Shown here in pieces: positions 1-1,434 of a stretch of DNA of 5,629 bases (position 1 is its first letter; each line of letters begins with the position of its first letter). The stretch lies in the IMG/VR virus record IMGVR_UViG_2660238352_000003. The stretch is one strand, 5' to 3'. Both the position numbers and the translations under genes were made by a program. The notes beneath the pieces were generated by a model. That model worked only from the letters and a program-made list of their open reading frames with translations, ran no database searches and was not told the origin of the DNA. This DNA comes from a virus (lineage: Duplodnaviria > Heunggongvirae > Uroviricota > Caudoviricetes).

Positions 1-289
1 GCCCTGACCAAAAGAGTCGAGGTCGTTGACTGAAACGGTTATGATCTGACGCGTCGTCGTGCGTCGTTTTGCAGAGTAGAATTGCGCCATTGGTTTTTCC
101 GGAGCGAAAGGCTATAAGCGGCATACTGACGCGGTAATTACGGCCCAGCGGTTCACAAATCACCTTCTGACATTCACGGTCAACCAGGCTAACACGTAGA
201 ACATGCCCTGCAGGCGTGGTGTACCACTGACCCGGACGAGGACAACGGAAAGTATGATTGGTAAACCGTTTGAAAATATTCCGGATCAT
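1..289 (-). CDS. Hypothetical protein, N-terminal part only (gene runs off the window start); Cys/His-containing N-terminus
   Basis: The minus-strand frame starting at ATG 289..287 stays open for all ~96 codons to position 1, while all three plus-strand frames here have stops. The ATG overlaps the TGA stop of the upstream 382-aa ORF (ATGA at 286-289), suggesting translational coupling. Hand translation begins [61 protein letters not shown]. The composition is Arg/Cys-rich and no family was recognised, hence moderate confidence. Confidence 0.45.
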
Positions 290-1434
290 TTGCGCCCCCT
301 TACCTCTGAAGGGTTCAGCGACAAATTTATGAGACTGGCCAGTAGCGCCGCGTCGTTGATGCGGTCATACAGACTTACAGCCAGCGGGGATTCGGCTTTT
401 GCCAACATGGGATAAAGCTGCTGCAGCCAGACCTGATGAATTGATGAAATGTAGGAATAGAGAACGCTGGCGTTATGTGCAACGTCGCTCAGTACAGAGG
501 GATTTGAAAGCTGTTTCTCCATCTGGTTAAAGGCATTGATGTATGCCTCTTTGAACTGGGCAGCACGTTTACCCGTGAAACCCATAGCAAGAAACGCAAA
601 GCCGTCGCGGGTTATTTGATAGCAAGGTAGTTTGCGGCCTGTGCAATCGGTGTAATCACTCACCGAAAAATTGCGGGAAGTGAATGATGCAGAGCATTCA
701 AGCGTGCGGATCTTTTTCAGTACATCGTCATGACGTTTGGAGAAGAAGTTGGCAACAGCCAGGGATGAAGTAACAGCCTGACCATCAACGATGGCAATTT
801 CAGGTTGAGTGAGGGTTGGGATCGTAGCCATGATGGCAGCCTCCGTTGACTGTGGAAAACTTCCACCACCGGAGCTGCGAAACTCACTGGTGGCAGACTG
901 AACAGGGTTCGCAGTACCGGCGTCAACGGAGACCGGCGAGCCTTTCGGCTCCCCTGCCCAGCCCACCATAATTCTGGCGTGCGTGAGCGCGGACGATAAA
1001 AAAGACGCTGGCGCGTCATATATCGCCGTTGACAATTCCGGGCTGCGACCCCCGGCACCCGCTTTATAAGGTGCCTGAGCAGTGTAACGTCCCGGAATTG
1101 CAGAATCAATATGCTGGTGGTCCTTCACACTCAACAAAATCACGCCTGAATTTCCACAAAGGACTAAAGCACTCATGCTGGTAGTCTTTGCGAAGATAGA
1201 TAACGCGCTGTGTTTCTGGCTCCCAACGAATAACATGAACATAAAGTCCTCTTCCGTCACGAAACCAGCGGTTAAGTTCCTGCACAACTCGCCCCCCACA
1301 GTCAGGTAAAGTTCTCTGTGGTTACTTACAGCCAGGTGATTTGGTAATCTGCATTCATGCCGTAACAACAGGTGTGCAGCGACACTGACCACCAGCTGTT
1401 GCGACAAACGGTTATTTGCCGTTAAACTGTTCAT
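286..1434 (-). CDS. Phage early protein with a Rha-family domain (382 aa) in the replication-gene position; unrecognised N-terminal domain plus low-complexity linker
   Basis: ORF track 286..1434 (-). Residues ~215-300 (IVDGQAVTSSLAVANFFSKRHDDVLKKIRTL ... YQITRDGFAFLAMGFTGKRAAQFKEAYINAFNQMEKQL) match the recalled hallmark of the phage regulatory protein Rha family (Phage_pRha). The start ATG 1434..1432 overlaps the stop of the upstream gene (ATGA) and is preceded by GGAG. An alternative internal start at ATG 831..829 with a strong GGAGG SD lies just before the Rha domain. Confidence 0.7.
   Translation of the reverse strand: MNSLTANNRLSQQLVVSVAAHLLLRHECRLPNHLAVSNHRELYLTVGGELCRNLTAGFVTEEDFMFMLFVGSQKHSALSIFAKTTSMSALVLCGNSGVILLSVKDHQHIDSAIPGRYTAQAPYKAGAGGRSPELSTAIYDAPASFLSSALTHARIMVGWAGEPKGSPVSVDAGTANPVQSATSEFRSSGGGSFPQSTEAAIMATIPTLTQPEIAIVDGQAVTSSLAVANFFSKRHDDVLKKIRTLECSASFTSRNFSVSDYTDCTGRKLPCYQITRDGFAFLAMGFTGKRAAQFKEAYINAFNQMEKQLSNPSVLSDVAHNASVLYSYISSIHQVWLQQLYPMLAKAESPLAVSLYDRINDAALLASLINLSLNPSEVRGRK
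841..1033. repeat. Iteron-like repeat cluster inside the 382-aa ORF: CCGTTGAC x2 direct plus 1 inverted, nested inverted repeats, adjacent AT-rich patch
   Basis: CCGTTGAC at 843-850 and 1026-1033; the inverse GTCAACGG at 923-930 (10-bp inverted repeat CTCCGTTGAC 841-850 / GTCAACGGAG 923-932). ACCGGCG is repeated at 916-922 and 932-938. CTGCGAA (875-881) / TTCGCAG (908-914) is interleaved with CCACC (863-870) / GGTGG (889-893). An AT-rich stretch with the palindrome GACGCTGGCGCGTC lies at 996-1026. Confidence 0.3.

Follow-up and report, generated by a model that had tools for sequence, protein, structure and literature searches.

How should a long open reading frame (ORF) be read when its recognised domain lies in the C-terminal half, behind a perfectly good internal start codon? 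This question is raised by a stretch of 5,629 nucleotides (nt) of viral DNA (Caudoviricetes, IMG/VR virus record IMGVR_UViG_2660238352_000003), called the window below; all positions count from its first letter. Its minus strand carries an ORF of 382 amino acids (aa) that ends in a Rha-family domain. An earlier reading, made from the letters and ORF list without database searches (the sequence-only reading), offered two solutions: a gene fusion of two protein modules, or a long protein together with a nested short Rha protein.

Our present results describe two RNAs encoded inside this frame, their structure, the co-varying complementarity of one of them to the Shine-Dalgarno region of the Rha gene, the conserved start of that gene, the avoidance of stop codons in the long frame and its ATGA coupling to the gene upstream. 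From these features and the precedent of satellite phage P4, we propose that the locus is probably a P4-type RNA immunity module, placed in the early rightward operon of a lambdoid prophage resembling Shiga toxin (Stx) phages.

The start of the Rha gene

The ORF at 286..1434 and the Rha domain in its C-terminal half were both confirmed. Phage_pRha (PF09669) matches residues 222-307 of the 382-aa translation (E = 1.5e-30, 106 bits) and residues 21-106 of the 181-aa product beginning at ATG 831 (E = 4.5e-31, 107.7 bits). Both scores are far above the cut-off of 29.9 bits. PHROG families of Rha-like and anti-repressor proteins match the 181-aa product as well. Once ATG 831 is taken as the start, the domain stands at the N-terminus, as is usual in this family.

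The internal ATG had been noticed for its GGAGG and 8-nt spacer, and it proves to be genuine and conserved as a start. In other genomes, the Rha relatives encoded at 74 loci have alignments that begin with residue 1 of the 181-aa product. A GAGG or GGAG with the leader ATGGCTAC is kept in 60/60 family members and in the kil gene of P4. In six relatives, a 1-nt insertion or deletion beside the ATG shifts the upstream frame, and the protein still follows the frame of the ATG. Fusion to the upstream codons is therefore not obligatory.

RNA genes upstream of the start and their complementarity to the ribosome site

Two structured RNAs are recognised upstream of ATG 831 (Table 1), an isrK/seqA-like RNA closed by an intrinsic terminator and a C4/CI-type antisense RNA. 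Both exceed the Rfam gathering cut-offs, which are 50 bits for isrK (RF01394) and 45 bits for C4 (RF01695); a weak match to Rfam c4-a1b1 lies at 1035..1087. The distance from the isrK and C4 matches to the Rha start downstream is constant in 18/20 related loci scanned. The consensus fold of C4 over 59 relatives comprises 27 pairs, 13 of them with compensatory changes. A candidate promoter precedes isrK, composed of a -35 element TTGATT (1109..1104), a spacer of 17 nt and a -10 element TACACT (1086..1081) that is located 7 nt before the isrK 5' end; transcription would start near 1074. At this site, 48/58 distinct relatives have a TAnnnT -10 and a TTGnnn -35. The same position is occupied by TATAGT in P4 and by TTGACA-17-TATATT in Gifsy-1.

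The function of the C4-type RNA is suggested by its second loop, b'. The loop CUCCGUUGAC of the window is complementary at 10/10 positions to the b2 target GUCAACGGAG, which overlaps the GGAGG, and the neighbouring a' segment CUGCGAA is complementary to UUCGCAG (a2). An alignment of the window and 12 enterobacterial loci shows the second C4 loop to be hypervariable; even so, it always remains the reverse complement of 9-11 nt that immediately precede the start's GAGG and overlap it. In the same alignment, isrK contains a near copy of the loop target. We compared loops and leaders over 59 distinct combinations, which include 42 different b' loops. The match of a loop to its own leader has a mean length of 8.8 nt, versus 3.9 nt to the leaders of other loci, and only 0.4% of the cross pairs reach the median of own pairs. 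Because the loop exactly complements a target overlapping the Shine-Dalgarno sequence, and because loop and target co-vary over 42 specificities, ATG 831 appears to be the start at which synthesis of a putative antirepressor, the 181-aa Rha-type protein, is regulated.

Three side observations concern modules of this type. In phage SfV (L078 1677-2513, orf37, "immunity region"), the upstream frame, isrK, C4, leader and first codons (MAT-V/I-P) are as in the window, and what follows is an unrelated 77-aa protein without a Pfam match; a recombination junction lies just inside the coding start. At two loci (L013 2867-2953 and L019 2858-2942), Rfam sRNA-Xcc1 (RF02221, 67-72 bits) is found at the usual position of C4, directly upstream of a Rha relative. 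The two look like one kind of RNA, though sRNA-Xcc1 is placed outside the C4 clan. Viral contigs also carry two or three C4-type modules in tandem, spaced by exactly 656 nt (L109 4679-5391, L111 3667-4376, L136 9739-11104), and each module has a loop specificity of its own and is followed by a short gene (about 120 aa).

What the upstream codons encode

The upstream 201 codons have been given the appearance of protein by several sources. Pfam Phage_ASH (PF10554) matches residues 117-212 with 64.6 bits, PHROG 821 models the full length, and "Rha/Ash domain proteins" are named in papers (PMC8951638). As database annotation implies, the product could thus be a true multidomain fusion in which an N-terminal domain, the "Ash domain" and the Rha domain each function as folded protein. 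We regard this as very improbable, for the following reasons.

Codons 50-110 of the long frame overlap a DUF4222 gene in another frame. Compared with a diverged copy in an Stx1 phage, substitutions at codon positions 1/2/3 of DUF4222 number 7/7/29, and the protein under selection there is therefore DUF4222; the same 29 third-position substitutions fall on codon position 2 of the long frame. Over the whole part upstream of isrK, different genomic contexts have wholly different sequences. The Phage_ASH match corresponds to nucleotides of about 799..1086, that is, to isrK, C4 and leader, where compensatory changes in the RNA and the 42 loop specificities result in radical amino-acid changes. Nor did Phage_ASH behave as a protein domain conserved for its function, as entropy is flat over its codon positions and variation follows RNA pairing. 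In P4 (L201), Rfam C4 lies at 8420..8507 and isrK at 8615..8692, and the ORF that matches Phage_ASH is the old "cI protein" (8168..8584), drawn over the CI RNA. The true derepression protein of P4, epsilon (7888..8175), belongs to another family (PF25738).

Because the Phage_ASH match overlies isrK, C4 and leader, and because its match in P4 is an obsolete ORF, the "Ash domain" is apparently a conceptual translation of the RNA immunity region. The upstream 201 codons consist of an out-of-frame DUF4222 gene, a predicted promoter and two structured RNA genes, with no protein domains, and the amino-acid sequence upstream of ATG 831 shows no purifying selection. An unrecognised N-terminal domain of about 110 aa and an Ala/Gly/Ser-rich linker, both postulated by the sequence-only reading, dissolve into these elements. 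The gene fusion that it considered has to be given up as well: the upstream part consists of RNA genes whose loops co-vary with their targets.

Annotation of this frame is inconsistent. RefSeq and GenBank contain three different starts for it, giving 296 aa (L001 4925-5815), 382 aa (L002 2173-3321) and 340 aa (L077 2309-3331). None of them is the equivalent of ATG 831, and the L001 coding sequence (CDS) overlaps an annotated DUF4222 gene. Entries for the Rha gene in databases thus begin with 115-201 additional residues that form no protein domain. A survey of Stx phages lists a "Rha/Ash domain" protein of unknown role, possibly a replication factor (PMC8951638), and a survey of P4-like satellites took PF10554 as the profile of epsilon. 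Judged by its position in P4, this marker appears to find the RNA immunity region, not epsilon.

Why the long frame is open

If its amino acids are not selected, the frame might be open for no reason at all. Only the 181-aa Rha would then be made, and the upstream frame, open by chance across GC-rich, constrained RNA genes and an overlapping gene, would have been added to the ORF by gene callers. The missing constraint on amino acids upstream of ATG 831 fits this explanation, as do the three starts chosen by PGAP for one frame, the six relatives in which a 1-nt indel breaks the register with the downstream protein unharmed, and the lack of such a frame in phage P1 and many other C4 loci. A pure by-product is unlikely nevertheless, considering how stop codons are distributed.

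We examined a family of leaders, defined by GAGGCUGCCAUCAUGGCUAC and including the window and P4, and scored the frame from a conserved AUG in C4 to the ATG of the gene. The long frame is free of stops in 59/60 distinct related leaders, the other two frames in 17/60 and 4/60. When sequences were shuffled with column composition kept, 21.5 +/- 2.7 of 39 were expected to have a stop in the long frame and 0/39 had one, hypervariable columns included; stop counts in the other two frames were as expected. Openness continues through isrK in 70/72 sequences, and stops are avoided for 54 codons or more ahead of the C4 AUG. At the same time, codon-position entropy of the long frame (0.79/0.84/0.91) has almost no third-position excess, versus 1.12/1.03/1.41 in the Rha CDS. 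This pattern points to selection on openness of the long frame, not on the peptide.

A second argument against the by-product is the beginning of the frame. Without exception, 52 codons or more separate its first in-frame ATG from the C4 AUG further downstream, and this ATG lies outside the isrK transcript. Among 32 distinct upstream contexts of related modules, this ATG is joined to the stop of an upstream ORF in 18, and in 14 of the 32 the junction is an ATGA shared with a preceding ORF no shorter than 50 codons, as in the window. The long-frame ATG hence abuts an upstream stop in many unrelated contexts. The equivalent frame of P4, eta, is moreover reported as translated and functional (PMC10111431). 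After the frame-specific stop avoidance, the ATGA coupling and the P4 precedent, annotation artefact was dropped as the sole explanation of the long ORF. The proposal of a long and a nested short product therefore stands in part: the short 181-aa start is conserved and the long frame has the support just listed, but the upstream part is no protein module.

Two candidate generalisations were rejected. A small upstream ORF running from the C4 AUG to the downstream start is not a universal trait of C4, as it is closed 14-37 codons beyond the AUG in 32/124 loci. Upstream openness extends over 300-400 codons in Edwardsiella, Izhakiella and similar loci; the translations resemble shadow frames of genes on the opposite strand, and a real fused protein seems unlikely there. 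As a side observation, a 2202-base contig assigned to Martelella alba (L009) contains a complete enterobacterial-type isrK-C4-Rha module in an alphaproteobacterial assembly, possibly as contamination. Alone in the family, it has its long frame closed by a stop (UAG), which immediately precedes the start.

Comparison with P4, P1 and Gifsy-1

Three known systems resemble the window. In P4, Mageeney et al. 2023 (PMC10111431, citing Forti et al. 1999) place a constitutive promoter inside eta; its transcript is terminated via interactions between CI and seqA and is the source of CI RNA. Read-through produces Kil, which corresponds to the terminal part of Eta. Full-length Eta, in their account, is translated only from an upstream promoter and is coupled to an upstream alpA homologue, and its translation prevents termination. 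Four sequence elements of such a module are present in the window: a C4/CI RNA, an isrK with terminator and target copies, a target (seqC in P4, b2 here) overlapping the Shine-Dalgarno sequence, and a long ORF that starts upstream and is joined to the preceding gene; the internal promoter is a prediction. Rfam matches to isrK and C4 follow in the same order, the leader and start of kil and of the Rha gene are identical (GGAGGCUGCCAUCAUGGCUAC), the long frame begins before the internal promoter (a predicted one in the window) and shares its register with the short gene, and Phage_ASH is matched in both. The differences are that the short gene encodes a 65-aa Kil in P4 and a 181-aa Rha-domain protein here, that a lambdoid prophage with a switch of the cI/cro/cII type is the host element here, in which the upstream promoter would be PR instead of PLL, and that the long frame is longer than eta and overlaps the DUF4222 gene. 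The nested arrangement itself is known from P4; new are the Rha cargo and the Stx-type lambdoid host with its PR operon.

The immI region of P1 and P7 shares with the window C4 RNA, the a1/b1 and a2/b2 targets, their order and the spacing to the start codon. About 10 nt separate the end of b2 from the first start codon, that of icd in P1, and a2 begins 4 nt after C4 in P1 and 5 nt after the C4 3' end in the window. The P1 RNA guards an antirepressor operon, as the Rha gene here would be guarded. The window has no icd ORF between C4 and antirepressor, the Rha ATG being in the place of icd. Ant1 of P1 is of the ANT/KilAC type, unlike the window protein, which matches Phage_pRha only. No long frame passes through c4 of P1, where the open stretch before icd measures only 11 codons.

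Barquist et al. 2013 had noted IsrK-C4 systems in lambdoid prophages before. In Salmonella Gifsy-1, as in the window, isrK has a promoter and a terminator, a C4-like RNA (STnc1160) lies under an ORF beginning at the same AUG, the Shine-Dalgarno sequence of the antirepressor adjoins a b2-like site, and the host is a lambdoid prophage. The ORF over the C4-like RNA, orf45, is translated and needed for synthesis of the antirepressor AnrP (PMC4825925). It is a separate ORF of 45 codons that meets anrP in AUGA, whereas the window frame from AUG 969 runs without stop into ATG 831. The Gifsy-1 module follows the Q gene and that of the window follows cII. AnrP is an ORF6N-type protein, not Rha; it was considered as a homologue of the window Rha and rejected, as there is no BLAST similarity and only distant PHROG antirepressor families are common to both.

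Proposed mechanism

By analogy with these three systems, from which we take promoter activity, RNA processing, translational repression, Rho-dependent termination, long-frame translation and the antirepressor activity of Rha, the module could work as follows. In a lysogen, the internal promoter would produce the isrK/seqA-like RNA, ended at its own terminator, and read-through transcripts would give rise to the C4/CI-type RNA. Its b' and a' would pair with b2 and a2 upstream of ATG 831, cover the Shine-Dalgarno sequence and thus keep the Rha-type putative antirepressor off; the untranslated mRNA would then be terminated prematurely, as in P1 and P4. Being complementary to a' and b' as well, the isrK elements a1 and b1 may modulate C4 by pairing with it.

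The long frame would have its role on PR transcripts, after removal of the main repressor or on infection. It should be translatable from these only, because its ATG lies upstream of the internal promoter, 325 nt from the -35 element, and overlaps the stop of the CII-like gene. Ribosomes coupled from that gene would read through the isrK terminator, C4 and the b2/Shine-Dalgarno site, making the Rha domain and the genes downstream insensitive to RNA immunity. A long isoform would result, with an N-terminal 201 residues whose sequence is not selected.

An activation of the Gifsy-1 type offers another route. Translation would begin at AUG 969 in C4 on transcripts from the internal promoter, with the short isrK RNA as its activator in trans, and would yield a 227-aa Rha extended at the N-terminus in place of a separate peptide. 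The start codon of orf45, whose translation has been demonstrated, is the same conserved AUGGUGG, and AUG 969 lies 46 codons upstream of ATG 831, in frame and with no stop between. Set against this, stop avoidance over at least 54 codons upstream of AUG 969 is left unexplained, no obvious Shine-Dalgarno sequence precedes it, and in other C4 loci the ORF from the C4 AUG often ends after 14-37 codons. We consider this activation possible but rather doubtful; it is compatible with the P4-type module, and the two can coexist.

Several points weigh against the P4-type module with a functional long frame. The predicted promoter agrees with the consensus at 8/12 positions and stays below the scan threshold, and the antirepressor role of Rha-domain proteins is based on annotation. 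The sequences in the shuffle test are related to each other, and the test consequently overstates significance. The stop-free overlap with DUF4222 has a chance probability of about 0.07 and is weak evidence alone. The long frame is missing from P1, from C4-Rha loci of the Marinomonas type (about 25 open codons) and from 32 other C4 loci. C4 control therefore does not generally depend on this frame, which could itself be a lineage-specific relic.

A wider proposition seems to us evenly poised between true and false: the long frame may be "product-indifferent", open only so that ribosomes of the PR operon can cross a terminator and an antisense-RNA gene and thereby override RNA immunity. Up to three nested Rha isoforms (382, 227 and 181 aa) would be made, and the arrangement would perhaps be general in at least 30 genomic contexts, including lambdoid Stx phages, P4-like satellites and PICI-like islands. 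With the stop avoidance, the idea drawn from P4 eta, in which translation counts but not the product, would reach beyond a single satellite to many elements.

The consequences would be practical as well. The Rha/Ash gene is situated in the region that controls lysis and lysogeny of Shiga-toxin-type prophages. If its "Ash" part is an isrK-C4 module guarding the start of an antirepressor, a second immunity layer would exist in these prophages, sequence-specific and of many specificities, which could affect induction and hence toxin release. The Pfam "Ash domain", by which P4 epsilon and "Bro network" proteins have been recognised, would be a family built on translated RNA genes. Thousands of database proteins, with three starts chosen for one frame, carry a false N-terminal extension.

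Neighbouring genes and distribution

The long frame runs through the DUF4222 gene, the two RNAs and their targets, and in frame into the Rha gene. Its neighbours in the immunity region are of the lambdoid type according to Pfam and PHROG (Table 1).

Table 1. Features of the window around the long frame and the immunity region
Feature	Position	Strand	Basis or detail
ORF starting at the Rha stop overlap, at least 96 codons, running off the window edge	2..289	-	ORF list
ATGA overlap of Rha stop (288..286) and ATG of the next ORF (289..287)	286..289	-	sequence
Nested Rha-family gene, 181 aa, putative antirepressor, in the position of P4 kil / P1 icd	286..831	-	Pfam, PHROG, relatives
Long open frame, 382 codons, equivalent of P4 eta	286..1434	-	ORF list
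Shine-Dalgarno sequence GGAGG	840..844	-	8-nt spacer CTGCCATC, then ATG 831..829
b2 target GUCAACGGAG, exact complement of C4 loop, overlapping Shine-Dalgarno sequence	841..850	-	sequence
a2 target UUCGCAG, complementary to C4 a'	875..881	-	sequence
C4/CI-type antisense RNA	886..973	-	Rfam RF01695, 78.8 bits
C4 a' segment CUGCGAA	914..908	-	sequence
C4 b' loop CUCCGUUGAC	931..922	-	sequence
Conserved AUG (AUGGUGG) inside C4	969..967	-	in frame with ATG 831, 46 codons apart
isrK/seqA-like RNA	998..1074	-	Rfam RF01394, 58.7 bits
Intrinsic terminator ending isrK: hairpin 1017..1004, U-run 1003..998	1017..998	-	terminator scan
b1 in isrK	1033..1026	-	8-nt match
a1 (loop of isrK hairpin 2)	1048..1043	-	6-nt match
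Predicted internal promoter, equivalent of P4 PLE / Gifsy-1 PisrK	1081..1109	-	8/12 consensus positions
DUF4222 gene, 59 aa, other frame	1106..1285	-	Pfam DUF4222 E = 1e-13; PHROG 1343 E = 7e-36
ATGA overlap of CII-like gene stop and first ATG of long frame (1434..1432)	1431..1434	-	ORF list, sequence
CII-like (YmfL-family) gene	1431..2009	-	Pfam/PHROG
P22-Cro-like gene	2037..2234	-	Pfam/PHROG
S24/helix-turn-helix repressor (CI-like)	2306..2983	+	Pfam/PHROG

The position of the 382-aa ORF after cro and the cII-like gene, where replication initiators normally lie, had been remarked upon in the sequence-only reading, together with the failure to recognise one. This was correct for the window: no family of replication initiators (lambda O or DnaC type) is matched in Pfam or PHROG anywhere on the 382-aa ORF. 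Close relatives have their replication genes further downstream (replication protein O and a helicase in L077, a replication protein in SfV and mEp460), and the locus is no substitute for a replication initiator.

DNA of the window is 99% identical to Stx1a-converting phages. Parts of it recur in 2256/5426 complete Escherichia coli genomes; 215 phage records, those of SfV, phiP27 and mEp460 included, contain parts as well.

The ORF that follows the Rha gene has no Pfam match, and its counterpart in L001 has 74 aa only. On the other side, between the yfdQ-like and yfdR-like genes, Rfam STnc100 gives a weak match at 4685..4865 on the plus strand (23.4 bits against a cut-off of 47, E = 0.05), which is probably due to chance. 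The early-left region of the prophage, with these yfdQ/yfdR-like genes at 3869..5358, is bordered by a fragment of the IS66 family, since a 61-aa ORF at 5428..5613 on the minus strand matches the IS66 C-terminal element (E = 2e-17).

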